Below, piece by piece: positions 5,278-29,387 of a DNA stretch of 56,588 nucleotides. Position 1 is the first letter of the stretch, and every line of letters starts with the position of its first letter. Position numbers and translations under genes: made by a program. The notes under the pieces are model-generated. The model was not told where the DNA came from, ran no database searches, and saw nothing but the letters and a program-made list of their open reading frames with translations. This DNA comes from Bdellovibrionota bacterium. GTDB taxonomy: Bacteria; Bdellovibrionota; FAC87; UBA2466. The DNA lies in contig JBGSST010000238.1 of NCBI GenBank assembly GCA_041736915.1, positions 1 through 56,588 on the forward strand, in the 5' to 3' direction.

Positions 5278-6408
5278 ATGTGGCAAACCCTTATCCTACT
5301 GTTTTGGTTTGCCATTCCCGGCTGGGCCGAGCCTCCGTCGTTTCTCGACCCGGGCCCCGGCCGCACGGTCCCCATTTTTGGCGCGCCGTTCGTCGTGCCC
5401 ACCGAGCATAATCAGCGAGACTCCATTCCTATCGTGAAAGAGGCTCCGTCGGGCGCCTACGTTTCCGTGGGGTTCGAACGCTCGTTCGTGGGGGCGGCCA
5501 TCACTCCGGCAGCCACCCATCTGGTGATTCTGGACCGAAATCCCAACCTCGTTCAGTTGGCTCGCTACAATGCAGGGTTGTTGGCTTTGGCCCGCGACCG
5601 TGCGGATTACCTACAGCTGCGACTCAAGGGTAATGCAGAGACGATTCGGCAGCGCACGGAGAACAGCCAGGTGGCTTCCGACTACCGGCAGGCTCTGTTG
5701 GATCCCGAGACCGAGAAGCTCTTCGATATCCACGTTCGGGAAAAACGCACGGATCACTTCTTCTTCGGACCCTGGGGAGCAGGCCGGCGCGAGACCTTTT
5801 CCGTATTTCACAGCCCCCCTCCCAACAAGGGCGGCGAGTATGGGTACCGGGACGCCAACTACCTGCACGACGACAAACTGTTCGAGCGGCTGCAGGCCAT
5901 GGCCCGTGCCGGAAACATTTCCGCCGCCAAGGCGGAACTCTCGGACAAGACGCAGGTAAAGTCCGTCGTGGCCAAGCTGGCGGAACGTAGCGTGGGGCTT
6001 AGCGTGTTGGACGTTAGCGACACCTGGTACCACTCGAACCGGCAAAGAATCAGCTTCCTCACCCCTTCCGAATCGCTGGATCTTTGGCAGTCGTTCGGCG
6101 CCGTGGCCAAACCCGAAAGCGTGCTGCTCATGACGGCGTGGGACTCACGCGAAAAGCGCGTTGCGGACGCGCGTCCGGGCGTGGGCGGCTACTGGAAGTG
6201 GATCTACTTCGGAATGACTTACGAGAACGTGATGAATACCGGCACGGCGGCCACTACTTTGAACCGCATCGTGGACTACTATCACACTTACGGGCAGGGC
6301 AATCCCGCCTGGGCCGGACGCCTTGACCAGACTCCCAGTTCATGGCCCCCACTAAACCGTCCCGGATGTTTACTGGCGTTTCTTCGTCTTCTGACTTCCA
6401 CGCATTAA
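5278..6408 (+). CDS. Secreted hypothetical protein
   Basis: Internal ATG at 5278 gives the signal peptide MWQTLILLFWFAIPGWA, preceded by GGAAAGG. Divergent from the LysR gene. No confident family assignment. Confidence 0.7.
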   Translation: MWQTLILLFWFAIPGWAEPPSFLDPGPGRTVPIFGAPFVVPTEHNQRDSIPIVKEAPSGAYVSVGFERSFVGAAITPAATHLVILDRNPNLVQLARYNAGLLALARDRADYLQLRLKGNAETIRQRTENSQVASDYRQALLDPETEKLFDIHVREKRTDHFFFGPWGAGRRETFSVFHSPPPNKGGEYGYRDANYLHDDKLFERLQAMARAGNISAAKAELSDKTQVKSVVAKLAERSVGLSVLDVSDTWYHSNRQRISFLTPSESLDLWQSFGAVAKPESVLLMTAWDSREKRVADARPGVGGYWKWIYFGMTYENVMNTGTAATTLNRIVDYYHTYGQGNPAWAGRLDQTPSSWPPLNRPGCLLAFLRLLTSTH

Positions 6409-13229: not shown

Positions 13230-13946
13230 ATGAGTCGGGGAATCTTTGTCCTAGTAATGGGTTTGGCTTCCGCAGCGATGGGAAGTCCTTTGGACGGCAA
13301 GATTGGCCGGGCGGAACGCGTGGCGATCGTAGTGGTGGAGCTGGCCACTCACGCCCCGAAAGATCGGCGTTTCTTCTACGAGTTCGTGGAAGCGGCGGCG
13401 CACGCCGAAACCAAGAACCGGATTAAGCCGATTTACGGCAAGGTCGTCTTGCTTTCGGGGGTCAACGCCACTTTGCCCGCGCTGCAAAAAGCGATGGAGA
13501 GTGCGGCGAACGAAGATCGCGTGAAGGCGGTAGACATGTTCCTGCATCTGCACGGTAGCCCCGGCGGGATTTCGTTGCGGGACGGGCACCTCTCTGCGGC
13601 GAAGATCGCCGAGACTCTCTCCGCCGTGACTAAGCTGCCGGCCAAGCTGCGCGCTTTGAACTCCACCGCCTGCTGGGGAGCCACCCACATCAAAGATTTT
13701 CTGGCCGCCGGCTTCAAGGTGGCTAGCGGTTCGCGCAAGGTAAACGCAAACGGGGCCCACGACACTCCGGCGTTTCTTTCCAACTGGGGTAAAGGGGCCA
13801 CGTACTTTACCGCGCAAGAAAAAGGCAACGACTCGCGCTGGATCGCCTTCTACGACAAGATTGCCGGTAGCTGGGGCATGGGCGCGGTCGATAGCTTTAA
13901 GGAAGTCGAAGGCAAGTCGGACATTACGATTTCCGACGCGCCTTAA
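13230..13946 (+). CDS. Secreted hypothetical protein with clan-CD-like His-Gly / Ala-Cys pattern
   Basis: Signal peptide MSRGIFVLVMGLASAAMG. VDMFLHLHG (H108-G109) and LRALNSTAC (C148) each follow hydrophobic strands, about 40 aa apart. The 3' end overlaps the giant gene by 23 nt (convergent). Confidence 0.65.
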   Translation: MSRGIFVLVMGLASAAMGSPLDGKIGRAERVAIVVVELATHAPKDRRFFYEFVEAAAHAETKNRIKPIYGKVVLLSGVNATLPALQKAMESAANEDRVKAVDMFLHLHGSPGGISLRDGHLSAAKIAETLSAVTKLPAKLRALNSTACWGATHIKDFLAAGFKVASGSRKVNANGAHDTPAFLSNWGKGATYFTAQEKGNDSRWIAFYDKIAGSWGMGAVDSFKEVEGKSDITISDAP

Positions 13947-16900
13947 CTTTTACCGGAACCCTTTTCGGCTGCCGGGCCATCGCGAGACGGCCGACCAGCA
14001 GAGCCAGGATCAGGATCATCACGTTTAGCATAGCTCCCAGTCCGGGCTTGGCCGGTTGGGCGGAGTGTACGGCGGCGCACGAGCCGCTAGAGGAGGCGGC
14101 CGGGGCATTCGCCGACGGGCCCGGCACGGACGCCAGAATGCGATCGCCCGCAGACGGTATCTTAACCTTGAGCATCGGGTCGCCGAAAAGGGTCCAGCTT
14201 CCGGTAATGTCGGCCGAGCCGCCTCGCAGCTTCGCCATGCGAACCGAGTCGCCAAGCCGCGCTTCCGGATGAGTGACGATGTACTCGTACAGGGCGTCTT
14301 GAACGCGTACCTGGAGGTCCGGAACGGTGAGCGTAGTCGAGGCAAACATGGCCACCGCGCCGCCGTGCCCGTTGAAGAGTAGCTTGTCGGCTAAGCTCAA
14401 CGTTGCGGGGTCCGCGTCGTAGTACATACCGTTCAAGCAGTTCATGGCGACTACGATCGGCAGCTGGGTATTGGTCAGCCCTTCCGCATCGTCGTTGTTA
14501 AACACGTTGAGGTCCGACCACACATTCTCGGCGCCGTGGCCGAGGAAATGAATGAACAGCGCGCCGTTATTGAACGAGTTCAGGATCGCATTCTTAAAGG
14601 CCGCATCGCCAAGCACGCTGCGCTTAACGAGGTTGACCGTGGTGTACTGGTTCCACTGGCCGGGCAAGAGCGAAGCCAGGCGTTCGGCCTTCTCGTCGAA
14701 CTTCTCGCCGCCGTACAACTCGGTGTCGCTGAGCAGGGTAAAGCGTTGGGCCGCGTCGCCCGTCGGACTGGTGGCGCCGCTTTCGTAGGTGATCACCTTT
14801 TCGATATAAGTCTCTACCGCCCGTACCGTGCCGCCCGGGATACGGCCGATGGCCAACGCCGGAGCGTCCGAGCCTTCGGTGAGCGCGACGTAGAAGTTGT
14901 CGTTACCGTAGTCCACCGCTTGGCCCTTGCTGAAGTAAGTCGGTACGCCGCTGGCGAGACCGTAGCCAAGCTGATTCTTAGGGTCTAACGAGGCATCGCC
15001 GATTAGCACCACGTACTTGGGCGCCGGGGCCTGCCAGTTGGCGATGGAGTAGGCGATGAAGTCTTTGATCGCCTGCGGAGATCGAACTCCCTGGCCAAAC
15101 TCCATGAAGATATCTTCGGTTGGTACCAAAGCCGTGCGCGCACCGTTCGATCGGCGCCATTCGGCGAGCCGCGCCGCCGCCGAGAGGAGTCGCCGGGGAC
15201 CGATGTAAAGCACGTCGGCTCCCTGAGCGAGTCCCTTCCAGTTACTGCCCTGATTGAGCTCTAACGCCCACGGTGAAAACACCGCGGAATCCGCAACGAC
15301 CACTAGGCGGCGGCCAAGCGAGCTGCTAGCCGGCGTTGTGGCAAACTTCACGGCGAAGATACCGTCGTTATCGGTGATGACCGCGTTGCTGATTAGCGCG
15401 GTACCCGTGATTTGCGAGATGTCGTACACCGCGATCGCGCCGGACGACAATCCGTCGACCAGCATATCCTTCCCGGCCTGCGTGTTTTGAATGTCGGCAA
15501 AACCGCTGTCCACGCGGAAAGTGTGTGGATAATCCACGGTCATACGCTCGATGTTTACTACGTCATAGTCGCCCGACGGCACTAAATCGCCCAGCACCCG
15601 TACTTCGATCTGGTTGCGGCCGGCGACGAACATCGATGCCGGGACCGTGAACTCCATCGAGTAGGGTTGGTTTGATTGAAAAACGTGGTCTCCCAGCGAG
15701 CTGGCCGAGCCGTTCACGTATAAACCAAGGTGGTGCACCGGATTGTTAAGCACGGCGCCTTTACCGCCCTTTACGGACAGACGAATGAGCACGTGCCCGG
15801 TAGACGCCAAGTTGGGCAGATCGAACTCGGGCTTCAGCGAAGCATCGCCCGGCGAAGTCTCCGGAGCATAAATCCGGCCCCAGTAAATATGTTCGACGTT
15901 GTCCGCGATGGGCTCGTTAAAGAGCGCGATGCTGGCGTTCTTTAGCTCGATACGACGGCGGAATGCGGTTTGCGTGGAGTCGACGTTGGTGGGCGTGCCA
16001 TCCACGTCATCCATACGCAGGCCGTTCACGGAATCCACGTACAGAACGAGTGAGTTGCGGTCCGACGTATGAACATCGAAATACGGCGCAAAGAAGCGAA
16101 TCTCATCGCCCGGCGAGAAATTCGCACCTGCGGCCAAAACCTGGAGCGGAAGCTCACCCATCTTCGAAAACAGACGTAATTTATCGACGTTTGCCCCCGC
16201 GAACGGGCCGTCCACGCCGGCGGCGACTAAATCTGAGTAGCTAAGCTTGTACATGCCCGACTTACGAAGGTGAATCTTGAGGCCGCCTTCATAACCCCAG
16301 GGGCCGCTTTCCGTAACCGGTGCGCCTACGTTCCAGTTAGGCGCGCCCGAGAGATGAACGTCGAAGGTGATCTGCGAAATGGCATTCGCCACGCGCGTGA
16401 CCGGATTGTACTTAACCGGACGCACCACGATGGGGAGGTAGTACAGCCCCTGATTTTCGACAATCTCTTGGAACTCCACCGGCTCCGACGGTAGCGACTG
16501 GTTGGTAGTGTAGAAAGCGGTGTCGATTTCGCGTGACGAGATGAGCGCGCCATTCACGACGGTCCAGGTGCGGGCCGCGACTATGTCGATTGACGTCGTA
16601 TCGGAGGCCGTACGCGACACTTCCGCGAAGCTCGCGGCGTCCGCCCCGGGAACTTCGACGAGCACTACGCGTTCCGGAAGCTCGGGCTTTCCGCCTTCGG
16701 TGGTCGAAGCGTAACCTTCGATCGCAAGCTGATCGTAACCCACCATATCGGACGCTGACCTTACGAAGGCCGGCACATCGATACGCAAGCGCAATGAGTT
16801 CTTCGTTTTTGCCAGCTGAGTGACCCCCGGAGCCACGGTCACGATGCCGGGAGTCGTGTCATTCAGTGAGGGGGCTCCACCGCCACTCGTGTTGGTACTT

Positions 16901-19900
16901 ACGATGGCGCCCGAGCTAGCCGCCGGCACTACGCCGAGCGAGTTGAGCGGAGTGGCCGATACGGGGCCGTGAAACTTGCGCTTACCATTCACCGCGATGT
17001 CTTCCAGACGGTAGTAGTACGTTACGCCGTTAGTGACGCCCGAATCACGGAAGTCGTAGTTACCGTGCACCGTTCCGCTCTGGATTGGATTACGAATGAG
17101 CGTCGGGTTGACCTGCGCGTAACCATCGCTGGGGCTGACGCTGCGGTAGATGTTGAAACCTCGGTGCGCCGATTCCTGACCCGTTTGCCACAGCAGGCGA
17201 ACGACTCCGTTGTACGGCTCGGCTTTAAAAGCCTGCGACAGCGATACCGGCGACGATGCATTGGAGATCGTGGCTCCGCAGTTGGTCATCGAGACTTTGG
17301 TGGCTGGGTCGGGAATTCCGACCGCGAATTGGAAATCGCCGAACCAGTTGGTGAAGTTCACCGTCTGGTTACTGCAGCCCGTGGATGCCAAGAGGTAATA
17401 GGTTTCGCTGGGGTCGGGAGGCGAACCATCGGGGCCCCAGTTGAAACCGACGTAGTCGGCGCCGGACGGCAGAGTGCCGGTAGTATTCATCTGAATGCCG
17501 TACACATCGCTGGGTGCACAAAATGAGGGGCTCGGAATTTCGCGTAGCTGTCCGCCGGCCAAACTCGGCACGTTGGTCGTGCCGGTGATCTGCATACCCG
17601 GACAGGTCAGCCATTCGACGAGCCAGCCGTCGAGGTCGAGGTTTCCGGAAGTGGCCACGAAAGACCACCGGCCCGTGCCGCCACCGGAGTGGGTCATCGT
17701 CGCTTTATTGCTCGTCAGCTGGGGGTAGCCATCATTGACCCCGCCAAGCTTCAAAGTGCCGCCCGCCACGGTAAAGGTCGTGGAAGGGGCCACCGCTACG
17801 GTACTACCGCCGTCAACCTGGAAAGTGGCCGAGCTTAGCGTAGCCGCGTCCGGTAAAGTCAGAGTGTCGCCATTGCGAACATTAAAGATAAAGTTCTGGC
17901 TCGCGGGGATCTCAAAATGGTTGATCGTGAGGTTGTTGTTACCGATGTACACATACCCGCCAGCCGTCTTGTTGAACACGAGGTAGTCGAGGGCGGACGA
18001 GCTTTGGAGCGTTTGGTTGGTCACCGTCGATCCATCGTCCAGGATCGTGATCGTGGCCGTGGCGCTCCCTTGGATGATCGTTCCGGTGTTGGTGAGGGAT
18101 CCATATACGCTCAACGTCTGGCCTGAGTTGATCGTGAGCGTTCCGTTACCAATGGTAACCGACTTACAAACGGCTCCGACGGCGTTGATGATGGGCGAGT
18201 TCGTGGCGTTGTTGATCACACAGTTCCGGGTCGCATCGGGAATGATGGTATTGGGTGACCAGTTGAGCGGATTGAACCAGTCCGTCGAGACCGCGCCAGT
18301 CCAATTCACCGTATTACCAATGATCGTTAGTGTACGACCCGATTTAGGCGGGGCGAAGGACCCGTTAAAGCTATAGCCTTCGCTGTTCACCACGTCGCCG
18401 GACGTCCCTATCTTGGCGATGAGGGTAGCGCCGGAGGTCGCCGCCGAAGCTACGTCAAACTCGATGTAGACGCAGCGTTGGGGTGGCGACGTCAGATCCG
18501 ACTGCACCGTGACGCCGGTCAATCCACTGAACGTAATGGAGGGAGGGCTACCCGAAAAGGTTAAGGCCGTACCCACCTGAGTACCGCCCGAGCCGGAGCA
18601 CGCAGCGTCGTAGTAAAGTCGAGCGCTCGACACATCGGATGAAGAGCCCGTACCGTCGAGGGTCACTTTGACCGAGGTTAGGTCGGTGTTGTCGTAGACT
18701 CCCGGATCGGTTTGCTGAAACGACCACCAGCCGGCGCGTAGGGCAGTGTCGCCCTGGTTCGTGTTGTTCGCTCCGGAAGTGGCGGTGTGCACTCCCGATT
18801 GGGTGCCGCTGGTGTTGATGGCCGCTCCGCCCAAGGTCGCCGTTACCGAGAAGGTGTTGGTGGTCGGGGCCGGCGAAGCAGCCACGTAGTAGGTGGTGGC
18901 CGGAGCAAGCCCAGTCGGCAGCGCTCCCGTGGTCGAGAAAACGACGGAGGCGCCGGCAATTAGCCCGTGCGACGTGTACGTTACTACCCCGGGGTTGGCG
19001 ATAGTGATCGTGACCGTGCCGGAGGCATCCACCGATGCGAGCTTCAAAGTGGTAGTGGGGGTCGCCCAGGTGACAATGTATGAAGGGTCGGTGTCAAAAG
19101 CGTCGCCGGTCAAGTTGCCGCTGTACGCATCAATGGTGAGCGTTCCCGCGGCTACCGCGCCGCCGGTAACTACTGATTGGGCTCCGGTGGCGGGCGAACC
19201 GTCTAGATCGAACGTCATGTTGTCCCACGCGTTGCCGGGCACCTGCCGATTCAGCGTAATCATGACTGGGTTGGTGCCGATCGGATAAGTGAACGCGCCA
19301 TTCTGTAGGTAGTGGGTGGCGTCAATCGTAGCCCCGGAGCCAATGGTGACGCCGGCTACGGCCAGACGGTTGAACGAGTAGTACTGCGCCTTGATCGTTC
19401 CGCTAACACTTACCGCGCAGCCGGTAGTGGTTCCGGTGCAGGAGAACGATGCGGGCTGCGAGGAATTGCCGACAATCTCGAGCGTACCGGAGGCTCCAAC
19501 CGTAAGTGTCCGCCCATCCCCGAGGATGAGGTAGGCGCCCGGATCAATTTTGAGGGTGCCCCCGTTGACGTTTATGTTGCCCGCCACCGTTAAGGTATTG
19601 CCCGCGGTAATGCGTAACGTTCCCGCGGACAGGGTTAGGTCTCCCGTCATCGAAAAGTCGCTGTTCACCGTTACCGTGCCGCTGCCGGCGGAATTGTTGA
19701 TGGTAACTCCGCCAGGGAAGGTCGTTTCGGCGTAGATACTCTGATTGGCGGTAGTCGAAGCGAAGGTGATGTTGCCGTTCGTGGCGGTCGTAAAGTTGTA
19801 CGAGCTTCCGATTTCCAGTGAACCTAGCACCGTGAACACGTTGGTCGTGTTGTTCCAGGACAAACGGCCACTGTCCGGCAGCGTAACGTTGTTACAGGTG

Positions 19901-22900
19901 CGGTTGCCGTTCAGTACGGGATACGAGTACGCCGGACCGATCTGACAATCGTCCGTAGTCGCGGGCAGCCCCGTCGGCGTCCAGTTTTGGGTATTGAAAT
20001 CCCAGTTTGTGGCGCCGGCGGCACCGTTCTGTGCGTTACCCCCACCCCAGATTTTAGTGGATACCCCACCGACGGTAACGGTGGAGATCGGACCCTGCAC
20101 CGGAGGACCATTGGTGCTGGGAAACTGATAGTTCTGCGAGTTCACCACGTCTTCGGTGGACGCAATCTTTACCTGTAACGTGGAGTTCAGGCGCGCATTC
20201 GACGAGGTCGCGAGCAGAACGTGAATGCACTTGGGCGTAGTATCGCTCAAAGTGATCACGCCACCGCCTAACGATAGAGTCGCCACCGCCGGATTATTGA
20301 CGAAGGTGAGGTTCGACCCAATCTGGGTATCGACGCCGGCGTTGTAGACGCAGTTCGCACTGGTATCGGCGTACACTTTCGCACTGGCTACGTCCGAAGC
20401 GGCGTTGGTTCCACCCAGGGTGAAGGTAATCGAAGTAATATCGCTCGCCGTTCCTACGCCGTTCAAGCTGAAAGCAAAGGTCGCAAAGAGGGTGTCCGAA
20501 GAACTACGGCCGATCGTGGCCGGCGGGTTACCGCCTGCGGTGGCATTCGCCAGCTGTAATCCGACCGGCGCCTGACTTCCCCAATTGATTTTGTTACCGG
20601 GGTCGGTCTCATACGCCGTGTCTCCAAATCCTGACCAATCCGACACCGTCACCGCCGTGCCCGTATATGCGGTGGCCTGGAAGTTCTTGATGTTTCCGAA
20701 AGCGTAGTCATCGAAGAAGCCAAGACCAGTCGGGTTCGGGCTGCTAGGAAGATTCTTCGCCGTGTTTAGGGTGATCGCAAAGCCACCACTGGCGAGGTAG
20801 TGAAACTCGCCGTTTGAAATAGTCTGGATGCTATCGGAGCCGGCCGTCGTGATGTTCAGGCCGGGCGCCGTCGTGCGGCTAATGGAAAAATAGTTTGCGT
20901 TAATTGAGCCCTGAACGTTGAGCGCAAAGCTAGAGCTGCCGTCGATGGCGTCAAGTTTCGCTACGGCGCCGGAGTTGCCGATGATCTGAAGCACTCCGCC
21001 GGGCTTAACCGTCATCGATTTACCGTTTCCAATCAGCACCGATCCACCGGCGCTAATTTTGAGCACGCCGCTTACTTCGATACCGCCGGCCGCGGTGAGC
21101 ACCGCTCCGTTCTGAATTTCCAGCGTAGCGCTCGCGGGAATCGTGAGCAGATCGTTAGTGTTGGAAAGGGTTAATCCTGACTGCACTTTGATCGTTCCCG
21201 CTCCGCTAGCGATCGCGAACGATTCGCTCACGGTGAACGTGCTCGGCATGTAGACGGTCGTAGAGTTTGTGATTAGCAGCTTGCTTAACGGATCGACGTT
21301 ATCCAGAGTCTGCTCAGCAGTTCCGGCCATCTTTAGCAGGAAACCCGATCCCGTCGTCAGTGAACCGGCGTTTTGGTTCGTGAAGAACTCTCCGGTTATG
21401 GTTAACACGCGTCCACCCTGAAGAGAGTGAGTCCCGGTTCCGGTGCTCGTCACGGTGAGCGGTCCACCATCCGAGGTGGCCGCTAGAGAAAAAGTGTTCG
21501 CGGCTGGCGCCGGAGCGGCGGCGATGTAGTAGACGGTGTTCAGCGCTAAGCCCGCGGGTAAGGTGCCGGTAGTCGTTAGTGTGACGGGGGTACCGGCCGA
21601 AAGCCCGTGCCCAGTCAGCGTAAACACTGAGGGGCGACGTCCGGTATGCGTGCCGGTTCCGGTGGTTTGCAACGAAAGCGGAACGCCGCCCGCCGTTCCC
21701 GACAGGTAGAAAGTGTTGGCGGTCGTGGCGGGGGCCGCGAGCACGTAGTACGGAGTGCCCGAAGTGATCCCCGTCGGAAGCGCTCCGCCTGAGTTGGTGA
21801 AGGTCACAACCTCGCCGGCGGCGATTCCGTGGGCCGTCCAGTTGATTAGGCCTGGTCGAGTGACGGTGTGTACTCCGGATTGGGTGCCACTGAATGTGAT
21901 GGACGTTCCCCCCACGGAAGGGGCGAGATAAAAGCTGTTGGTGAGGGGGGCGGGTGTCGCCGCCACGTAGTAGACCGTGCCCGGAGAGATGCCGGTGGGA
22001 AGTGCCCCCGTCGTGGAAAAGAAGACCGGGGTGCCGGCGGTCAACCCGTGAGCGGTATAATTTACTTTACTTGGTTGCTCAGCGGTATTTCCGGTGCCGT
22101 CCGAGGTCGTGGTGATAAAGGTGCCGCCAATGGTGGCGGTGACCGAGAATGAATTAGCCGTAGGCTCCGGGACGGCCGCCACATAGTAAATGGTAGCGGC
22201 CGTGAGCCCGCCGGGCATGGTGCCCGCGAATCGTACCGGATCCCCAACCGCCAGGCCGTGGGCAGTCCAGCGGACTGCATTGCGAATGCCCGTGTTGCCG
22301 CCGCTGCCGGTAACGTTGGTAAAGCCTAATCCATCCGATGTGGCCGACACGCCGAAGGAGTTCGCCGTAACCGGCAAAACGCTCGAAACGTAGTACGTCG
22401 TGGTGGTGTTAAGCGGCGCATCCGCCGTAGTTACGCGAAAGGAATCACCCGCCACGAGTCCGTGATTGGTCCAGCGAATCGCGTGTCGCTGAATGGTGAG
22501 GTTCGTATAGTTCGTGGCTCCGGCGGCATTAATCACCGCTCCGCCGGGGGTGGCGGCTAGTTGAAAGTTGTCGGTGCCACCGCCCGCCGGGTTGATGACG
22601 TAGTAGACGGTACTCGTGCTGAGTTCAGGGGGGAGCGTGCCGGCGGTAAAGCGGACGGGATCGCCAGCGACCAGTCCGCAGTTGTTCCAGGTCACACGAT
22701 CGGTAGTCGCGGAGAAGGAAGCGGTGATGAGCTGAGTGGTCACGACCGTCGTGGCAATATCGGCATCCACCATCGTCACCGCACCGGAGTTAGGAATGCT
22801 CGTCGTGACCGTACCGCTCGTGCCGGCCGTGACCGTAACGGTAGCCGTTGCCCCCACGGCCGCGGTGAAGGTGGGCGCGGTCGGGGTGGCCGTCATCGTG

Positions 22901-23265
22901 CCCGAGACTATTCTCAAACACGACAAGCTATAGCTAGCGTTGGGATAAATGGGGACACGCCAGTCAGCTTGGATATACGCATACTCGGTCGAGGCATTGG
23001 GAACGTTGTTGGGTTCCCAATTACCGGCGCTGTTCCAATCCGTGGTGCCTAAGTCCGGCTCCCAAACGAGCTGCGTCGCCGGATTGTCACTGACGCCGCC
23101 GCCGTTCTGACAGCATGCCCCGGTACCGAGCGTACACGCCGCCTGCGCGCTCTGACTCATCGCGGTTAACGCGATGGCGAGCGAAAAAAGAAGTCGGAAA
23201 ATTTTTGAACCGTGCGCTTTCAAACGTACCTCGTCGTGAAGGAGCCTCAGTCTTCTTTTCGGCAT
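13924..23265 (-). CDS. Giant (3113 aa) secreted surface protein: tandem repeats + beta-helix-like modules + peptidase C25 (gingipain-like) domain + C-terminal sorting signal
   Basis: Uninterrupted 9.3-kb ORF with signal peptide KIFRLLFSLAIALTAMSQSAQA. A TTG at 23223 preceded by GAGG is an alternative start. The C25 region spans ~aa 2655-3035 (nt ~14161-15303), with GRIP, FLGH-G (His2910, nt 14536-14538) and VAMNC (Cys2943, nt 14437-14439). Both codons were verified in the sequence. Confidence 0.9.
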   Translation of the reverse strand: MPKRRLRLLHDEVRLKAHGSKIFRLLFSLAIALTAMSQSAQAACTLGTGACCQNGGGVSDNPATQLVWEPDLGTTDWNSAGNWEPNNVPNASTEYAYIQADWRVPIYPNASYSLSCLRIVSGTMTATPTAPTFTAAVGATATVTVTAGTSGTVTTSIPNSGAVTMVDADIATTVVTTQLITASFSATTDRVTWNNCGLVAGDPVRFTAGTLPPELSTSTVYYVINPAGGGTDNFQLAATPGGAVINAAGATNYTNLTIQRHAIRWTNHGLVAGDSFRVTTADAPLNTTTTYYVSSVLPVTANSFGVSATSDGLGFTNVTGSGGNTGIRNAVRWTAHGLAVGDPVRFAGTMPGGLTAATIYYVAAVPEPTANSFSVTATIGGTFITTTSDGTGNTAEQPSKVNYTAHGLTAGTPVFFSTTGALPTGISPGTVYYVAATPAPLTNSFYLAPSVGGTSITFSGTQSGVHTVTRPGLINWTAHGIAAGEVVTFTNSGGALPTGITSGTPYYVLAAPATTANTFYLSGTAGGVPLSLQTTGTGTHTGRRPSVFTLTGHGLSAGTPVTLTTTGTLPAGLALNTVYYIAAAPAPAANTFSLAATSDGGPLTVTSTGTGTHSLQGGRVLTITGEFFTNQNAGSLTTGSGFLLKMAGTAEQTLDNVDPLSKLLITNSTTVYMPSTFTVSESFAIASGAGTIKVQSGLTLSNTNDLLTIPASATLEIQNGAVLTAAGGIEVSGVLKISAGGSVLIGNGKSMTVKPGGVLQIIGNSGAVAKLDAIDGSSSFALNVQGSINANYFSISRTTAPGLNITTAGSDSIQTISNGEFHYLASGGFAITLNTAKNLPSSPNPTGLGFFDDYAFGNIKNFQATAYTGTAVTVSDWSGFGDTAYETDPGNKINWGSQAPVGLQLANATAGGNPPATIGRSSSDTLFATFAFSLNGVGTASDITSITFTLGGTNAASDVASAKVYADTSANCVYNAGVDTQIGSNLTFVNNPAVATLSLGGGVITLSDTTPKCIHVLLATSSNARLNSTLQVKIASTEDVVNSQNYQFPSTNGPPVQGPISTVTVGGVSTKIWGGGNAQNGAAGATNWDFNTQNWTPTGLPATTDDCQIGPAYSYPVLNGNRTCNNVTLPDSGRLSWNNTTNVFTVLGSLEIGSSYNFTTATNGNITFASTTANQSIYAETTFPGGVTINNSAGSGTVTVNSDFSMTGDLTLSAGTLRITAGNTLTVAGNINVNGGTLKIDPGAYLILGDGRTLTVGASGTLEIVGNSSQPASFSCTGTTTGCAVSVSGTIKAQYYSFNRLAVAGVTIGSGATIDATHYLQNGAFTYPIGTNPVMITLNRQVPGNAWDNMTFDLDGSPATGAQSVVTGGAVAAGTLTIDAYSGNLTGDAFDTDPSYIVTWATPTTTLKLASVDASGTVTITIANPGVVTYTSHGLIAGASVVFSTTGALPTGLAPATTYYVAASPAPTTNTFSVTATLGGAAINTSGTQSGVHTATSGANNTNQGDTALRAGWWSFQQTDPGVYDNTDLTSVKVTLDGTGSSSDVSSARLYYDAACSGSGGTQVGTALTFSGSPPSITFSGLTGVTVQSDLTSPPQRCVYIEFDVASAATSGATLIAKIGTSGDVVNSEGYSFNGSFAPPKSGRTLTIIGNTVNWTGAVSTDWFNPLNWSPNTIIPDATRNCVINNATNSPIINAVGAVCKSVTIGNGTLTINSGQTLSVYGSLTNTGTIIQGSATATITILDDGSTVTNQTLQSSSALDYLVFNKTAGGYVYIGNNNLTINHFEIPASQNFIFNVRNGDTLTLPDAATLSSATFQVDGGSTVAVAPSTTFTVAGGTLKLGGVNDGYPQLTSNKATMTHSGGGTGRWSFVATSGNLDLDGWLVEWLTCPGMQITGTTNVPSLAGGQLREIPSPSFCAPSDVYGIQMNTTGTLPSGADYVGFNWGPDGSPPDPSETYYLLASTGCSNQTVNFTNWFGDFQFAVGIPDPATKVSMTNCGATISNASSPVSLSQAFKAEPYNGVVRLLWQTGQESAHRGFNIYRSVSPSDGYAQVNPTLIRNPIQSGTVHGNYDFRDSGVTNGVTYYYRLEDIAVNGKRKFHGPVSATPLNSLGVVPAASSGAIVSTNTSGGGAPSLNDTTPGIVTVAPGVTQLAKTKNSLRLRIDVPAFVRSASDMVGYDQLAIEGYASTTEGGKPELPERVVLVEVPGADAASFAEVSRTASDTTSIDIVAARTWTVVNGALISSREIDTAFYTTNQSLPSEPVEFQEIVENQGLYYLPIVVRPVKYNPVTRVANAISQITFDVHLSGAPNWNVGAPVTESGPWGYEGGLKIHLRKSGMYKLSYSDLVAAGVDGPFAGANVDKLRLFSKMGELPLQVLAAGANFSPGDEIRFFAPYFDVHTSDRNSLVLYVDSVNGLRMDDVDGTPTNVDSTQTAFRRRIELKNASIALFNEPIADNVEHIYWGRIYAPETSPGDASLKPEFDLPNLASTGHVLIRLSVKGGKGAVLNNPVHHLGLYVNGSASSLGDHVFQSNQPYSMEFTVPASMFVAGRNQIEVRVLGDLVPSGDYDVVNIERMTVDYPHTFRVDSGFADIQNTQAGKDMLVDGLSSGAIAVYDISQITGTALISNAVITDNDGIFAVKFATTPASSSLGRRLVVVADSAVFSPWALELNQGSNWKGLAQGADVLYIGPRRLLSAAARLAEWRRSNGARTALVPTEDIFMEFGQGVRSPQAIKDFIAYSIANWQAPAPKYVVLIGDASLDPKNQLGYGLASGVPTYFSKGQAVDYGNDNFYVALTEGSDAPALAIGRIPGGTVRAVETYIEKVITYESGATSPTGDAAQRFTLLSDTELYGGEKFDEKAERLASLLPGQWNQYTTVNLVKRSVLGDAAFKNAILNSFNNGALFIHFLGHGAENVWSDLNVFNNDDAEGLTNTQLPIVVAMNCLNGMYYDADPATLSLADKLLFNGHGGAVAMFASTTLTVPDLQVRVQDALYEYIVTHPEARLGDSVRMAKLRGGSADITGSWTLFGDPMLKVKIPSAGDRILASVPGPSANAPAASSSGSCAAVHSAQPAKPGLGAMLNVMILILALLVGRLAMARQPKRVPVKVKARRKS
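18775..18987 (-). repeat. Isolated seventh copy of the ~70-aa HGL/YYV repeat
   Basis: aa ~1427-1497: VVTYTSHGLIAGASVVFSTTGALPTGLAPATTYYVAASPAPTTNTFSVTATLGGAAINTSGTQSG. Confidence 0.7.
21418..22695 (-). repeat. Six tandem ~67-73-aa coding repeats (W/Y-T-x-HGL-x-x-GD/T-x-V...LP-x-G...T-x-YYV...N-x-F-x-L/V)
   Basis: aa ~191-616 of the giant protein. Examples: IRWTNHGLVAGDSFRV..TYYVSS..ANSFGVSAT, VNYTAHGLTAGTPVFF..VYYVAA..TNSFYLAPS, VFTLTGHGLSAGTPVTL..VYYIAA..ANTFSLAAT. Confidence 0.8.
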
Positions 23266-23422: not shown

Positions 23423-23445
23423 TCCCCCGAATGGGGGATTTTTTT
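23423..23445 (+). terminator. Hairpin TCCCCC-GAAT-GGGGGA followed by T7 (intrinsic-terminator shape on the plus strand)
   Basis: Read directly. The T-run abuts or overlaps the stop codon of the minus-strand rSAM gene. On the minus strand the hairpin has no U-tract. Confidence 0.3.
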
Positions 23446-24473
23446 CAACTTTCGAAAACCTGCCGTTTGATCTCGCCCAGCTCCATCAGGAAGGGAACGG
23501 GGGCCATGCGATCCCCGGTTTCGGCGCCGGCCATGCCGGGGCAATGATCGCAGAACGATCCGCTACCGCACGAGGTGTCGAACTTGAGATCGCGAACGCG
23601 GTAACCGCGCAACTTCTCGGCCTGCGGTGAATGCCACAAGGTTTGGAAGTCGTGCTCGCGCAAGTTTCCGATCGGCTCGCGCACTTCGAGGCAGGTTAAA
23701 AGATCGCCGTACGGATTCACCGCGCATTTTCCTCGACCGGCGTTACACACCGGTGCGTTAGGATCGTCGACCGGATTGGGAGAAGGGCCGCGCCCCTTTT
23801 CCTTCATGCGAGTGTAGTAGCGACGAAGCTGATCGGGGGTGGCCCGGGTTGCGGTAGAGCCCAATGACGAATCATTTTTCGGAGTGACCAGCGGATCGAA
23901 CTGAATCGGAATTTCCATGCGATCGGCCCAGCTCTGGAGATCGAAACAGCCGTCGATATTTTCTTTCGTCAGCAAACAGTTCACGCCAAGCTGAATGTTG
24001 GCCTTCTTGAGCCGATCGATCGCGGCCACGGTGCGCGCGTGCGACCCGATTCGGCGGGTCATGCGATCGTGAATGGCGGCCTCGGCCGAGTAGAGACTTA
24101 CCGTCACCTGGTAGAAACCGAGTTCCGCAATTCTCCCGGCGGCCTCTTCGTCGAGCAGAAGGCCATTGGTGATGAGACTCATGGCAAAATTTTTCTTGGC
24201 GCCATACTCGGCAATTCCCCAAAACTGGGGATGCATCATCGCCTCGCCGCCGATCAAAATAAGGTAAAGCGTTTTGGCGTCGGCGAGCTGATCGACGATG
24301 CCTTTCCATTCGGCAAGGTTGAGCGGTGGTCGTCCGTCCGCCCGATCGTCGAAGGTGGAAAGGTAGCAGTGGCCGCATCGTTCGTTGCAGTGGTAGGTCA
24401 GCTCCAGCGTCGCCTGCAACGGCAGCAACGACTGCGAGTAGAGATCCCTCCACGCATTGACGATGGACATCAA
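23445..24473 (-). CDS. Radical SAM/SPASM-domain peptide maturase
   Basis: CNERCGHCY (CxxxCxxC) near the N-terminus. C-terminal auxiliary-cluster motifs CNAGRGKCAVNPYGDLLTC and CGSGSFCDHCPG. Start is TTG 24473 or ATG 24470, a 4-nt overlap with the upstream PqqD-like gene. Confidence 0.9.
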   Translation of the reverse strand: MMSIVNAWRDLYSQSLLPLQATLELTYHCNERCGHCYLSTFDDRADGRPPLNLAEWKGIVDQLADAKTLYLILIGGEAMMHPQFWGIAEYGAKKNFAMSLITNGLLLDEEAAGRIAELGFYQVTVSLYSAEAAIHDRMTRRIGSHARTVAAIDRLKKANIQLGVNCLLTKENIDGCFDLQSWADRMEIPIQFDPLVTPKNDSSLGSTATRATPDQLRRYYTRMKEKGRGPSPNPVDDPNAPVCNAGRGKCAVNPYGDLLTCLEVREPIGNLREHDFQTLWHSPQAEKLRGYRVRDLKFDTSCGSGSFCDHCPGMAGAETGDRMAPVPFLMELGEIKRQVFES

Positions 24474-24733
24474 ACCTCTCGGCGAATTAGTTTGAGCGAT
24501 TCCAGCTCAGTGAAAAAACGTTCGGCATCGCTTTGTGCGATAACCGGCTCGACGTCGAACGTGTCGCTGAGTCGCGCGGCAATCTCAGTGCACGTGGATT
24601 TTCCGTCGGCATTACGCCAAAGAAAGCTCGCGACTACGTTCAGCTCGTGAATGGTTCCGGCCTTGGGCGAGAGGACCACGACCCGTCCATCGACTTCACG
24701 CCACGGCAGATTCGAAATGTGGTGAGGCACCAT
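24470..24733 (-). CDS. PqqD-family peptide chaperone (RiPP recognition element)
   Basis: REVDGRVVVLSPKAGTIHELNVVASFLWRNADGKSTCTEIAARLSDTFDV...AERFFTELESLKLI is a typical PqqD/RRE pattern. ATG at 24733 gives 87 aa. The track ORF extends to 24844 with a Cys-rich extension. Confidence 0.8.
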   Translation of the reverse strand: MVPHHISNLPWREVDGRVVVLSPKAGTIHELNVVASFLWRNADGKSTCTEIAARLSDTFDVEPVIAQSDAERFFTELESLKLIRREV

Positions 24734-24774
24734 CCGCGAATTAAAACAAATGCCATCGCAGGGGGCAAGGCACG

Positions 24775-25737
24775 TTGCCGCAACGCAAGGCGTTTTCGTG
24801 CCGTCGCGCGTACCGCTATACTTCGGCGATGGATCGGCGGACATTTTTGAAAAGTTGGGCGGCAGCCGCTCACCCCCACACTTTAGAGCAGGGGGCCGAG
24901 CGTCTTGCCCTATCGATTGCGGGCGTCCGTTTCGACCTTCTCACCGCCGACGCCCGATTGGCGCGGCTGATGGGAAATTACTTCGCGGAGTACCGGGGCG
25001 AAGGCGAAGCGCGGCTGGCGGTGCATTTGTTCCCGCTAACCCGCACCGATTTGCCAAAGCTGTGGGATGACGCCGATCCCGATTTTCATGGCGACGGTGA
25101 CTTCGTGGTCCAGCGGGACTTCGGGGCCCGACGGGAACGGTTGGCGGATGGCCGCACGCGGGTGCTGGCCGCCCTTCATCCGGAAGAGCCCGAGGATGCC
25201 GTTCACAATCTGCTTCGCTGGGTAATGCCCGGTTTTCTCCTCGAGCACCGGTGTTTTCTGATGCACTCGGCGAGCGTGGTTTTTCGTGACGAGGGGTATC
25301 TCTTCTACGGCCAAAGCGGCGCCGGAAAGTCCACGACGGTGGCTCTGATCGCTGGCCACGAAGAGGGGGCCTCGGTTCTCGGTGATGACGCGGGCATCAT
25401 CGAATGCCGTGACGGTCGGGCCTGGCTGCACTCCGCTCCGCTCGGCAGTGGCTTTTCACGCCTTGCGCCGCGCAAGACGCGCGTTCCGCTGCGGGGGATT
25501 TTTTCTCTGGAGCAGTCTAGCCTCACCGAAAAGCAACCCATGCCGACGGCGGAGGCGGTGCGCACGCTTCTCGCCAGCGCCATGACGCCGGACTTTTCCG
25601 TGGATGTCGACGGGCGATTTGATCTGGCGGTTGAATTTGCCGGTTCCAGTTGTGGCGTGCGCCGGTTAAAATTCCAGAAAAGCGCCGAGTTTTGGACGAT
25701 GATTTCGACAACAGAAAAAGGGGTTGGTGGTGTCTGA
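24775..25737 (+). CDS. HPr-kinase-like P-loop protein (putative peptide Ser kinase)
   Basis: HSASVVFRDEGYLFYGQSGAGKSTTVALIAG...VLGDDAGII mirrors the HprK C-terminal domain pattern H..v...G.G.LI.G.SG.GKS....L...G..LV.DD. Start is ambiguous: TTG 24775 or ATG 24829. Confidence 0.75.
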   Translation: MPQRKAFSCRRAYRYTSAMDRRTFLKSWAAAAHPHTLEQGAERLALSIAGVRFDLLTADARLARLMGNYFAEYRGEGEARLAVHLFPLTRTDLPKLWDDADPDFHGDGDFVVQRDFGARRERLADGRTRVLAALHPEEPEDAVHNLLRWVMPGFLLEHRCFLMHSASVVFRDEGYLFYGQSGAGKSTTVALIAGHEEGASVLGDDAGIIECRDGRAWLHSAPLGSGFSRLAPRKTRVPLRGIFSLEQSSLTEKQPMPTAEAVRTLLASAMTPDFSVDVDGRFDLAVEFAGSSCGVRRLKFQKSAEFWTMISTTEKGVGGV

Positions 25738-25909
25738 CAAGAAAAATGAAACGGCGGAGAAACCGGACAAGCTGAAGTATCAGAAGCCGGAGATCAAAAC
25801 CGAGCCGCTCACCACCGTCGCCGCCCTCTGCAACGGCAGCGCCACAGGCGGCCGCAAAGCTACGACTGGCGCTCCGAACTTTTGCCAGGTCGCTAAGCTG
25901 AAGTCGTAA
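25724..25909 (+). CDS. Candidate RiPP precursor peptide (59-61 aa, two Cys, C-terminal Ser)
   Basis: VVSDKKNETAEKPDKLKYQKPEIKTEPLTTVAALCNGSATGGRKATTGAPNFCQVAKLKS. AAGGGG lies 6 nt upstream of GTG 25730, the best start. Overlaps the kinase-like gene stop and ends 7 nt before the peptidase gene. Contains a YxxPx(I/L) leader-like motif. Confidence 0.6.
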   Translation: MVVSDKKNETAEKPDKLKYQKPEIKTEPLTTVAALCNGSATGGRKATTGAPNFCQVAKLKS

Positions 25910-25915
25910 ATTTTC

Positions 25916-26359
25916 ATGGATTGGATTGCTCTCGAAGGCAAGAGCATGATGCCGTTTCTAGATGCGGGCGATCGAGTCGGCGTGAAATGGCTGTCGGGGG
26001 ACGACTGGAACGACCTCGTGGAAGGCGACGTCGTGTTGGGACGTAACCCCCAGGGAGGATGGATCCTCCACCGAATTTTGTCGTGCCCACGAGTCGCGGG
26101 AGAAAATCCCGAGTGGGTGACCAAGGGAGACTCTTCGATTACCGCCGAAACTTTCGCCCGCAATGAGCTTTGGGGCCGGGTGGTGGCGGTAAAGCGCGGC
26201 GAAGAGGGGCCCGAAATTTTACTGCAACGAAGTCGACTGGATTTTTGGATCGCCCGTTTTTCGCGGTACACGCAACTCACAAATTCCACCCGGCTCGCCA
26301 AGGCATTTTGCCGGCGCGCCGCCAGAGGACTGGGATGGCTAAGAAGGCGCTTCGCTTAA
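25916..26359 (+). CDS. S26B (SipW/Sec11/archaeal-type) signal-peptidase-like protease lacking an N-terminal TM anchor
   Basis: EGKSMMPFL (Ser10 box), GDVVL, WILHRIL (His52 box) and TKGDSS (cf. the TKGDNN box) occur in the SipW/Sec11 order. The protein starts directly at the Ser box with no hydrophobic anchor. Confidence 0.75.
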   Translation: MDWIALEGKSMMPFLDAGDRVGVKWLSGDDWNDLVEGDVVLGRNPQGGWILHRILSCPRVAGENPEWVTKGDSSITAETFARNELWGRVVAVKRGEEGPEILLQRSRLDFWIARFSRYTQLTNSTRLAKAFCRRAARGLGWLRRRFA

Positions 26360-27396
26360 AACAGATCCAGGCCGGCACGCTGGCCCTGCTGCGGCCGCAC
26401 ACGTTCATCGCCGTGCCGCCCGATCCGCGCATCCCCGCGGGCGCTTGGAAAGAGGCGTTCGCCTACGCCCAGCGCATTCACTCTGCCTTACCCTTTCTCA
26501 TTCAGATCGAAAGAGCCTCGCAAAAAGGGGCGTGGGGAAAATCGGTGTCGGCGGAAGAGCGCGTGTTTCTCTCCGAGGCGTTGCACCGCGATCGCATGTT
26601 TCTTGCGCTGCTCGATTGGGAGATGGAGAAAGCGGGCGAAGTTCTGGCCCGCGCCAAAGTTCCCGCCATCGTACTGAAGGGTATGGACCTCGCCCGGCGC
26701 TTTTATCCGGATCGCGTTTTTCGTCCGATGAGCGACATCGATCTGCTGGTGCGGGCGCGTGATTTTTCGAAAGTGGTTTCGCGTTTCGAAAGTGAAGGGT
26801 ACCAGGCCGTGGGCCGGCACTACCCCGGCCGTTTCCGAATAGAGCTCTGCCGGGACGAAGGACGGCCGGTCGTCGAGCTGCACAGTTTTCTACTGAAGGG
26901 CGACGACGCCGACTCGATGAAGGGAATCTGGAAGCGGGCCAAGGAGCCGGAGAACAATCCCTTTCCGGGAACTCTCGTGCTCGGTGACGAGGACCATCTT
27001 TTTTACTTGGGCGCGCACGCGGCGGTTCAGCACCTCATCGAGTCCCCCATCTGGCTGAACGACATTCACTTCGTGCTGCAGAACGGGGAGCCGGACTGGG
27101 ACAAGCTATTGAAAAAGATCGAGCAGCGCCGCAGCCATACCGCATTTTGGTTTTTATTCACGGTGCTCAAAGCGTGGGGCCATACGGCTCCCGACGATGT
27201 CATCGAGCGGCTCACGGCCGAGGTCGCGTCCGGCCGTCGAGCGGCGCTGTCCGTATTGGCGCCGCAGGAGAGGCTTTTCCCGTATGCCGGCCGCGGCTGG
27301 ACGTGGATGCTATCGGGCCGGTTTCTGCTGAAGGACAGTGCCCTGAGTGCGGTTCGGTACGCCATTGAGCGCCAGCTGGTGACGAGACCGGCGTAA
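26335..27396 (+). CDS. Nucleotidyltransferase family protein (uncharacterised NTP_transf_5-like, DIDLLV motif)
   Basis: AIVLKGMDLARRFYPDRVFRPMSDIDLLVRARDF...GY...VELHSFLL matches the family pattern. ATG at 26335 overlaps the peptidase gene end. Confidence 0.8.
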   Translation: MAKKALRLKQIQAGTLALLRPHTFIAVPPDPRIPAGAWKEAFAYAQRIHSALPFLIQIERASQKGAWGKSVSAEERVFLSEALHRDRMFLALLDWEMEKAGEVLARAKVPAIVLKGMDLARRFYPDRVFRPMSDIDLLVRARDFSKVVSRFESEGYQAVGRHYPGRFRIELCRDEGRPVVELHSFLLKGDDADSMKGIWKRAKEPENNPFPGTLVLGDEDHLFYLGAHAAVQHLIESPIWLNDIHFVLQNGEPDWDKLLKKIEQRRSHTAFWFLFTVLKAWGHTAPDDVIERLTAEVASGRRAALSVLAPQERLFPYAGRGWTWMLSGRFLLKDSALSAVRYAIERQLVTRPA

Positions 27397-27495: not shown

Positions 27496-29058
27496 CTAAA
27501 TGTCGCGGTTAAGCGCAGCCACAAGCTGCGACTTGAAACCGACCAAAAATCGGACCGCTCGCTCGCGCCAAGTAGATTTCCGAAGCTTCGGCATCGTTCT
27601 ATCTTCTGAGCCGCGCTGCTTTAGTGCGTAGCTTAGGAAACCGTGCTTTTCGGCGGTTAACACTCGAATCTCCCAGCCATGTTCTAGGCAAAAGTCATCC
27701 ACCGCCTGGAGCACCCCGTACCTAACTCCGGAGGTTGCGTTTCCTTCGACGTAATCGTGACCGGCAATAACCCCATCTTTCTTCACTTTTCTGAGGGAAA
27801 CTTCCAGCTCAAGCTTTGTGTTTCGGTAGGTATGGTCAGTGTCAATGTAGACCCAATCGAAGTAGTGATCGGGGAATTGGCCCAGGGTCTGGTGTGAGTA
27901 ACCTCTAAGGATCTCGATCCTCCCGAGGTTAATTTCAGAACGAAACTCATCTTGCACGCTCGTATGCTTGCTTTCGCCGAATCGTTCACTATCCCATGAA
28001 TCGATTAGGTAGAGTTTTTTCGGACGAACCACACGAAGTACTGCCTTCGAAAACTCACCTTCGTCGACCCCCATCTCGGCCCCTATGGAGTTTTTAGGGA
28101 GCAAATTTAAGAGATCTAGGCGAGTGGGCACCGTTCGGTAGTTTTTTTTATGCGTCCCTGGGCTCCGAACGTACTTGTCACAGCTCGTGCACGGGATGTC
28201 CGTGCGAGGCGGTTGCCGCCCCAACAGCATCTGCTTTGCGTAGCTCAATTTTTCTCCGGCAATGACCGCCGAAAGTCCGTCTGTAAAGGCATTGCCAAAG
28301 TCCCCCCAAGTGTTCACGCAACAACCCAGCACGCGACCGTCCCAATTGATTTGGGGACTATTCCACAACTGCTCACAGATCTCGGACAGGTAACTGGTGC
28401 CGGTTCTTTTTTTGAAGACTGATCGATTTCCCGCAACCAATCCATGCATGCGTGCAAATTTCTGGGGGGCTTTCAACGGAGAGAATTTATCGTCGCAGTT
28501 CAACTTCAGGAGGAATTCCATTCCCAATTCTTTGGAAAGCTCCCTTGCCTTATCCACCTCGTGTTGATTGTGACCAAAAGCCACGAACTGCCAAGTAAGC
28601 TTTGGTGTATCGGAGTGCAGTCTCTTCTTTACTGCAACCAGTCGTCGGAGGTTATCGACAACCCGGTCAAAGTTCCCGTTCACCCGGTACTGGGCGTAGG
28701 TGAACTGGCTAGCCCCATCGATGGAGAAGGTAATTCTTTTCACGCCGCATTTAACTAACGCCTCCATCACCTTCGCGGGGACGTGGTTAAAATTTACGCC
28801 GTTGGCCAGAGTGATGGCCACGTTCCTCTCGGCGCTAAACTCCAAGATCTCCACCAGGTCGGGATGCAAAAACACTTCGCCCCAATTCGAAAGTTCGATG
28901 GTCCGTATGTCGGGGTTTTCTTCGATCAATCGCCGATAGTTTTCCATTCCTATGAAGCCTGAACCCAAGTCTTTCCTGACTATTCCCTTGGCGGTAGGGC
29001 ACACGGGGCATTTGAGCTGGCAATGGGTGGAGATGTCTACCCTGACCGATTCTGGCAT
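27496..29058 (-). CDS. Radical SAM/SPASM-like domain fused to a class I SAM-dependent methyltransferase
   Basis: CQLKCPVCP (CxxxCxxC) at the N-terminus. Cys-rich mid region CEQLWNSPQINWDGRVLGCCVN...IPCTSCDKY. C-terminal MTase-like LYLIDSWD...WVYIDTDHTY...KDGVIAGHDY. The ATG at 29058 is preferred because the track ORF (to 29274) runs into repeat-derived sequence. Confidence 0.8.
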   Translation of the reverse strand: MPESVRVDISTHCQLKCPVCPTAKGIVRKDLGSGFIGMENYRRLIEENPDIRTIELSNWGEVFLHPDLVEILEFSAERNVAITLANGVNFNHVPAKVMEALVKCGVKRITFSIDGASQFTYAQYRVNGNFDRVVDNLRRLVAVKKRLHSDTPKLTWQFVAFGHNQHEVDKARELSKELGMEFLLKLNCDDKFSPLKAPQKFARMHGLVAGNRSVFKKRTGTSYLSEICEQLWNSPQINWDGRVLGCCVNTWGDFGNAFTDGLSAVIAGEKLSYAKQMLLGRQPPRTDIPCTSCDKYVRSPGTHKKNYRTVPTRLDLLNLLPKNSIGAEMGVDEGEFSKAVLRVVRPKKLYLIDSWDSERFGESKHTSVQDEFRSEINLGRIEILRGYSHQTLGQFPDHYFDWVYIDTDHTYRNTKLELEVSLRKVKKDGVIAGHDYVEGNATSGVRYGVLQAVDDFCLEHGWEIRVLTAEKHGFLSYALKQRGSEDRTMPKLRKSTWRERAVRFLVGFKSQLVAALNRDI

Positions 29059-29255
29059 CGTGGAGGTAACTATACCTGGTTTATCTATGTCGCGCTTTGC
29101 CTGTCTCGAAGGGAATCGGATGCCTTTGAATCCGTGATAACCGGAACTAAGCAACGCTGAAGCCCTCCGGCTCGACGGGAGCGGTTTAGCGGTCAGTAAT
29201 TTAGAAGCAGGAGCATTACGGCCGACCCGCCCAATGTGGTAGGGCGGCCCACCGG

Positions 29256-29387
29256 CGAGGTCGCGTCCGGCCATCGAGTGCCAGCTCGTTACGAAACCGG
29301 CGTAAGCGCCCCACCCCGATGGCGATCGCCCTATTGAACCAGCTCAAACACGAGGTGGCTGACCACCTCGTCGGCATATCCCGCCAT
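29256..29387. repeat. Right copy of the duplicated junction (deleted remnant of the NTase 3' end + intact lipase-like gene 3' end)
   Basis: See the left copy. This copy lacks the equivalent of 27244-27366 (123 nt). The deletion is bounded by the similar short sequences TCGAGCG and TTGAGCG. Confidence 0.8.

Follow-up and report, generated by a model that had tools for sequence, protein, structure and literature searches.

A conserved radical-SAM peptide cassette of Bdellovibrionota with a putative kinase for a C-terminal serine

What does an HprK-like protein modify when it is encoded between a radical S-adenosylmethionine (radical-SAM) peptide maturase and a short Ser-ending peptide? This question is raised by a 56,588-nucleotide contig of a Bdellovibrionota bacterium (JBGSST010000238.1 of assembly GCA_041736915.1; hereafter, the window). 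Three forward-strand genes are central to it: an HprK-like P-loop protein that is a putative peptide Ser kinase (hereafter, K; 24829–25737, 302 amino acids (aa), Pfam ScmC family PF27840), a precursor peptide (25730–25909, 59 aa, delimited by ortholog alignments and 52 relatives), and an NTP_transf_5 nucleotidyltransferase-fold enzyme resembling PsmN and LppN (hereafter, N; 26335–27396, 353 aa, Pfam PF14907 at 8e-32). A preliminary description, made from the letters alone, had proposed that K phosphorylates the terminal Ser of the peptide and that N may decorate it further.

The best explanation of this interval is that it forms the tailoring half of a conserved cassette for a peptide made on the ribosome and modified after translation (RiPP). 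Judging from gene content and conservation, we give a probability of about 60% to a pathway in which K phosphorylates the C-terminal Ser of a radical-SAM-modified precursor. The evidence comprises a recurrent gene set, retained catalytic motifs, the homology of K, N, and a signal peptidase I (SpI)-like protein (hereafter, S) to enzymes of lasso peptide clusters and of clusters for the polyphosphorylated peptides named LPPs, and a near-universal C-terminal Ser or Thr at a fixed distance from the last Cys.

Conservation of the precursor C-terminus

The precursor has a YQKPEI leader motif, a putative SpI site between VAA and L, and the core LCNGSATGGRKATTGAPNFCQVAKLKS. A terminal Ser that is not conserved among orthologs had been named as an outcome against the proposal; all 14 distinct orthologous precursors end in [KR][LI]x-Ser. 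A profile built from eight orthologs and searched against 1.84 billion representative proteins detected 52 related short peptides, the last residue of which is Ser in 41, Thr in 10, and another residue in one (thus Ser or Thr in 51/52). The leader motif [YFW]xxP is found in all 52 and exactly two Cys in 50, and the last Cys is seven residues from the C-terminus in 40 and five residues in 10. One Thr-ending precursor (L057) has a K homologue upstream (E = 8e-16). The sole relative with neither Ser nor Thr at its end (P0020) reads KLKS followed by an eight-residue extension, WDHKISSP, which may reflect a lost stop codon or a sequencing error.

Beyond these relatives, seven distant cassettes pair a kinase-like gene with a radical-SAM gene or a recognition protein. 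They are from Blastocatellia, other Acidobacteriota, Myxococcota, Clostridia, an unclassified bacterium, and Parasphingorhabdus (Alphaproteobacteria). Each has a YxxP/WxxP peptide adjoining K, picked by leader motif and position and not by its last residue, and all seven peptides end in Ser. A radical-SAM gene is present in six of the seven, with none detected in L015. Precursors of the lasso loci from the same scan also end in Ser, whereas the LPP-type loci show FET-xxS instead. YxxP/WxxP peptides beside HprK-like genes of Halosimplex (L019), Nostoc (L020), and Flavihumibacter (L022) end in …GSIF, …GVPI, and …ISAP, respectively, thus the terminal-Ser rule is not universal outside the radical-SAM-linked and lasso groups.

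Gene content of the cassette

The motifs quoted in the preliminary description were all found in the window, i.e., the P-loop GQSGAGKST followed by LGDD in the HprK-like open reading frame (ORF; ...YLFYGQSGAGKSTTVALIAGHEEGASVLGDDAGII...), MSDIDLLV and VELH in the nucleotidyltransferase ORF (...FRPMSDIDLLVRARDF... and ...RPVVELHSFLL...), and KLKS at the end of the peptide (...FCQVAKLKS). The genes it outlined are real, but their start positions and the numbering of the terminal Ser were revised on the basis of orthologs. Ortholog alignments and gene calls place the start of K at ATG 24829 rather than TTG 24775, a start that is disfavoured because the longer ORF would overlap the neighbouring PqqD gene in antisense, and the start of N at ATG 26335 rather than 26170. 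For the precursor, the most likely start is GTG 25730, which lies six bases beyond AAAAGGGG and gives a length of 59 aa; the terminal Ser is then S59 and not S61.

The pairing of K and N with a precursor also stands, and the interval holds a fourth gene that had gone unmentioned. It encodes S, a soluble SpI-like (S26B/SipW-type) putative leader peptidase (25916–26359, forward strand, 147 aa; NCBIfam sigpep_I_arch at 3e-6, below cut-off). Two further genes run divergently from K, precursor, S, and N on the reverse strand. One encodes a PqqD-family RiPP recognition element (24470–24733, 87 aa from ATG 24733; Pfam PqqD at 1e-14), the orthologs of which were called at 88–94 aa, and the other a radical-SAM/SPASM peptide maturase (23445–24473, 342 aa; Pfam Radical_SAM at 2e-19 and SPASM at 4e-8). 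The PqqD protein has weak, sub-cut-off matches to the ScmD, PqqD, and lasso PqqD models. The maturase has no NCBIfam equivalog above cut-off, the best being MftC (113 vs 265 bits).

No orthologous locus of sufficient length lacks any of the six genes. Chance falls far short of explaining the arrangement, as the same gene set is repeated in at least 12 independent loci whose flanks differ. The radical-SAM/SPASM gene was present in every orthologous cassette (E = 1e-149 to 1e-178). Close relatives of K (13 proteins in a large collection, 38–55% identity) were obtained from that protein collection and from the genomes of related bacteria; a pattern scan of genome contigs used GQSGAGKST and was hence biased, and yielded distant relatives only. 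Among 61 related genomes the K family has a patchy distribution, being strongly present in the own genome and in five relatives, namely one of the three congeneric genomes, two from its family, and two from other parts of the phylum. Three of the K-positive genomes have a second match to the K family, which corresponds to a complete colinear cassette in two of them and to a K–N pair in the third.

The sequences of N and S are consistent with retained catalytic function. N aligned with the N gene product of the Paenibacillus wenxiniae lasso cluster (30% identity over 239 aa, E = 7e-12) with the DxD and ELH motifs in register, and its invariant residues are K115, G116, R130, P131, D134, D136, and H183. 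Across 13 orthologs of S, G8, S10, M11, P13, H52, R53, G71, and D72 are invariant, and the conserved boxes read G-x-S-M-x-P and KGD. An alignment of S with the SpI of an LPP-type cluster (L018; E = 2e-3) matched the Ser, the His, and the KGD box.

Placement of the kinase-like protein

In the ortholog alignment of K, H146, GQSGAGKST, and GDD are invariant, and PF27840 (ScmC) is the precomputed Pfam label on K and on all 18 of its relatives. A profile search against the PDB gave nothing beyond P-loop matches to ATP-binding cassette (ABC) ATPases and weak matches to phosphoenolpyruvate carboxykinase (PEPCK), and was so uninformative that a fold search was needed. Foldseek matched an AlphaFold2 model of K (mean predicted local distance difference test score of 89.7) to ATP-dependent PEPCK (E = 3e-8) and to HprK/P (1knx; E = 9e-5), and the fold of K as modeled is the PEPCK/HprK P-loop fold. 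K is homologous to the kinase of the P. wenxiniae lasso cluster (27% identity over 131 aa, E = 5e-7), with the catalytic DD aligned.

Grouping of K with bona fide HPr kinases, or with exosortase-associated HprK-like families, had been named as an outcome that would speak against a peptide kinase. K had no match at E ≤ 0.01 to the bona fide HPr kinase models TIGR00679 and PF07475, and a P-loop domain tree placed a long branch (100% in the Shimodaira–Hasegawa-like approximate likelihood ratio test) between all RiPP-linked proteins and the six bona fide HPr kinases included. No HprK above cut-off was detected in the own genome. Membership in HprK-related families A and B and in ScmC was judged by hidden Markov model score, the tree holding no true members of them, and K scored far below the cut-offs in all three (TIGR04352, 16.5 vs 200 bits; TIGR04355, 29.8 vs 200 bits; ScmC NCBIfam model, 26.3 vs 125 bits). 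The K family of the window formed its own clade, nested neither in the lasso-associated clade (support 94) nor in the LPP clade (support 99), in a quick tree of 181 columns that leaves the deep branching among RiPP-linked kinase clades unresolved. As every refuting outcome that could be looked for in silico came out in favor of terminal-Ser phospho-tailoring on a radical-SAM scaffold, that proposal is supported at the sequence level.

Comparison with known peptide systems

The C-terminal Ser of lasso precursors is the target of the kinases PadeK and PsmK, for which the remainder of the peptide matters little (PMC6993621, PMC8498205). The D158A/D159A mutant of PsmK is inactive (PMC6993621), and PsmN, for which D134 and D136 are essential, attaches one or two hexoses to that phosphate (PMC6993621, PMC8498205). 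K retains the P-loop and a DD (D186/D187) equivalent to D158/D159 of PsmK, and N retains a DxD equivalent to D134/D136 of PsmN. The cassette of the window thus resembles the paeninodin and pseudomycoidin clusters in its Ser-ending precursor, in its homologous K and N with DD and DxD aligned, and in a YxxP/WxxP leader motif read by a PqqD-type protein, and differs from them in a scaffold attributed to a radical-SAM enzyme and in a K outside the lasso-associated clade. All genes from 23445 to 27396 were assigned, and neither a lasso cyclase (Asn-synthetase-like C) nor a B2 protease is among them, whereas two genuine lasso loci (L029 and L025) do show both.

The locus is accordingly outside a lasso context, as first described, but its novelty has been partly pre-empted by the LPPs (PMC13381572, 2026). 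The LPP core set consists of an SpI-like LppS, a recognition protein LppB, an HprK-like LppK, an NTP-transferase LppN, and an MsbA-like pump (Popov et al., 2026; PMC13381572). The clusters are named LppA/K/B/S/D/N and the precursor motif is YxxPxVLxHQxIxFETxxS; LPPs are from Bacillota only, are polyphosphorylated on core Ser3, and are made without a radical-SAM enzyme, and the leader is removed by LppS aided by the recognition protein (PMC13381572). The cassette of the window likewise has an SpI-like peptidase, a discrete PqqD-type protein, an HprK-like kinase, and an NTP_transf_5 enzyme, all with catalytic residues kept, as well as a YxxPx[V/I] leader and no lasso cyclase, and distant relatives of K were found in the LPP-type loci L012 and L018.

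The differences from LPPs are nevertheless substantial. Only YxxPx[IV] is common to the precursors, those of the window cassette lacking FET and a conserved Ser at core position 3; their core is a short two-Cys peptide with the conserved hydroxyl residue at the C-terminus. A radical-SAM/SPASM enzyme is obligatory, no MsbA-like or ABC exporter adjoins the cassette in the window, the hosts are not Bacillota, the kinases fall into separate clades, and a giant C25 protease is linked. New relative to LPPs are a partner enzyme of the radical-SAM type, a site at the C-terminus, hosts outside Bacillota, and the conserved giant C25 neighbor. The cassette would thus bring the phospho-tailoring of LPP and lasso clusters to a C-terminal site on a radical-SAM scaffold, and to new phyla, and we regard its novelty as moderate.

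Two other types of system share parts of this gene set. SynChlorMet (TIGR04248–TIGR04251; PF27840 ScmC) has an HprK-like ScmC-family protein, a PqqD homologue, and radical-SAM/SPASM enzymes, and to our knowledge that cassette has been defined only bioinformatically. The ScmC, ScmD, ScmE, and ScmF models scored only 26.3, 31.1, 75, and 62.8 bits here (cut-offs of 125, 100, 400, and 400, respectively), and the window cassette differs in having one conserved radical-SAM enzyme rather than two, SpI and NTP_transf_5 enzymes in addition, and an identified precursor. A search for literature on the SynChlorMet cassette, ScmC, and radical-SAM-linked HprK-like proteins found none. Sactipeptides and ranthipeptides share the SPASM enzyme, the recognition element, and a core with two conserved Cys, the cross-links being predicted in our case, and we know of no phosphorylation, NTP-transferase, or SpI in those classes.

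Proposed pathway

In the pathway that we favor, the PqqD-type recognition protein would bind the 59-aa precursor via its YxxPx[IV] leader motif, and the radical-SAM/SPASM enzyme would modify the two-Cys core, most plausibly through cross-links, thioether or other, in which C34 and C52 take part. K would then use ATP to phosphorylate the side-chain hydroxyl of the C-terminal Ser, possibly several times, after which N may add a further group to the Ser phosphate, a hexose if the lasso precedent holds. S would remove the leader, probably after VAA; this order of steps, like the radical-SAM chemistry and the nature of the N adduct, is a prediction.

Several points weigh against this pathway. The N step is the weakest, as LppN was inactive in the heterologous system used in the published work. 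K is only about 27% identical to the lasso kinases over about 130 residues, and its clade is not nested among characterized kinases. The nearest characterized non-lasso system, that of the LPPs, phosphorylates core Ser3 and not the C-terminus (PMC13381572), and 10 of the 52 precursor relatives end in Thr, while LppK rejected Thr. The C-terminal Ser/Thr could also be conserved for the sake of a different enzyme, e.g., the radical-SAM maturase, the C25 protease, or an export protein.

If the pathway is correct, HprK-type Ser phosphorylation followed by NTP_transf_5 decoration would be a portable module, available also to radical-SAM peptides in Gram-negative lineages and no longer confined to the lasso and linear peptides of Bacillota. 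The ScmC/PF27840 family would gain a concrete candidate substrate, i.e., the C-terminal Ser/Thr of a 59-aa peptide, and a genome-mining rule would follow (a YxxP leader, two Cys, and a C-terminal Ser/Thr beside K). The conserved link to the giant C25 protein, including one SpI–C25 fusion, hints at a biological role.

Alternative explanations

Phosphorylation could instead be directed at an internal Ser/Thr of the core, either the residue after CNG or that two residues after the conserved RK. The precedent is the LPP system, in which the phosphorylated residue is Ser3, beside the cleavage site, and removal of the leader is gated by it (PMC13381572), and the cassette has SpI, a recognition protein, K, and N in common with it. 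The two best kept internal positions do often carry Ser/Thr, after C-x-G in 36/49 relatives and at RK+2 in 33/50, yet Met, Lys, Ala, Asp, Ile, Val, and others are found there in a quarter to a third of the relatives, compared with the single departure at the terminus. The LPP motif FETxxS is also absent from the precursors, and we consider an internal target quite unlikely. Slightly less easily set aside, though still unlikely, is that K leaves no stable phosphate, and that activation of the terminal Ser by phosphorylation leads to elimination or substitution (e.g., dehydroalanine or a ring with Cys52), or that K performs another ATP-using step such as scaffolding or gating of the radical-SAM enzyme. 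A spacing fixed at Cys-x6-Ser or Cys-x4-Ser/Thr suggests that geometry constrains the last Cys relative to the terminus, the whole-protein fold of K is closer to PEPCK than to HprK/P, one locus encodes a radical-SAM–K fusion (L014, below), and the literature search returned no characterized ScmC-family member. On the other hand, the cassette has no lyase-like gene, N, which needs a phosphate acceptor in pseudomycoidin, is conserved alongside K, and all characterized RiPP-associated HprK-like proteins leave the phosphate on Ser (PMC6993621, PMC13381572).

If K and N act not on the peptide but, for example, on a glycan or on the giant C25 surface protein, the adjacency of the genes would reflect shared regulation only. 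The C25 protein is a conserved neighbor, LPP and paeninodin clusters sit in capsule loci (PMC13381572), and the own genome has a second N–K pair without an obvious peptide. We nonetheless consider this very unlikely, given that the K and precursor genes overlap or directly adjoin each other in almost all loci, that second cassette copies retain K, N, and the peptide with no giant protein within about 10 kb, and that the terminal Ser/Thr rule tracks K across unrelated cassettes.

The giant C25 protease neighbor

Next to the maturase gene, the window encodes a giant surface protein of 3113 aa (13924–23265, reverse strand) with a C-terminal gingipain-family C25 peptidase domain at about aa 2150–3060 (Pfam Peptidase_C25 at 3.5e-73, and Propeptide_C25). 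Its end, where SGSCAAV precedes a hydrophobic helix and then a basic tail, looks like a C-terminal sorting signal. In nearly all loci of sufficient length, homologues lie beside the cassette, in varying positions and orientations. They adjoin it in L001/2, L003, L005, L007/8, L048, L049, L050, and L054, and are also present in the Acidobacteriota cassettes L013 (6860–11524) and L016 (6671–12324), thus in at least two phyla. The C25 protein of L016 carries an S24/SpI-like domain as an N-terminal fusion. No giant C25 gene was found within about 10 kb of the second cassette copies (L051 and L052).

The conserved adjacency and the L016 fusion suggest that the peptide and the C25 protease may be functionally linked. 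A more specific idea, that the modified peptide is a dedicated partner of the neighboring giant protease, is tentative and seems to us somewhat doubtful. The peptide could be a trans-acting inhibitor or maturation factor, a role made conceivable by the conserved G-R-K loop between the two putatively cross-linked Cys, which would suit a protease specific for Arg/Lys; or else it may be a substrate or adduct on which a sortase-like C25 domain acts. If such a partnership exists, the role of the phospho(glycosyl)-Ser terminus would be to govern export, anchoring, or activity, and the cassette would represent a new peptide-plus-protease system spanning at least two phyla.

Other features of the loci

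A radical-SAM/SPASM–Methyltransf_24 fusion gene (27496–29274, reverse strand) adjoins the cassette in the window. It was rejected as a cassette member, being absent from all orthologous cassettes. A known defence system was also rejected as an explanation, as PADLOC gave no match for K, S, or N.

The second K–N pair of the own genome is on a 2.9-kb locus (L030, contig C391), where no homologue of the cassette peptide was detected. Its NTP_transf_5-like gene (95–1252; SSDIDLWL and EIDLHW) is directly followed by an HprK-like gene (1021–2004; GPSTAGKS ... LADD). The two complete second copies (L051 in genome G016 and L052 in genome G006) have the colinear order K–PqqD–radical-SAM–precursor–S–N, and their precursors read ...GAAITCNG...RLLS. 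The L014 fusion is a single ORF of 677 aa (804–2837), with a radical-SAM/SPASM domain (aa 29–340) joined to an HprK-like domain (P-loop at about aa 525) and a Ser-ending WxxP peptide just upstream. The Blastocatellia locus L013 encodes a methyltransferase-like ORF and two divergent HprK-like genes (1–843 and 5524–6453), one of which groups with the lasso-type clade and the other with the Acidobacteriota radical-SAM-linked clade.

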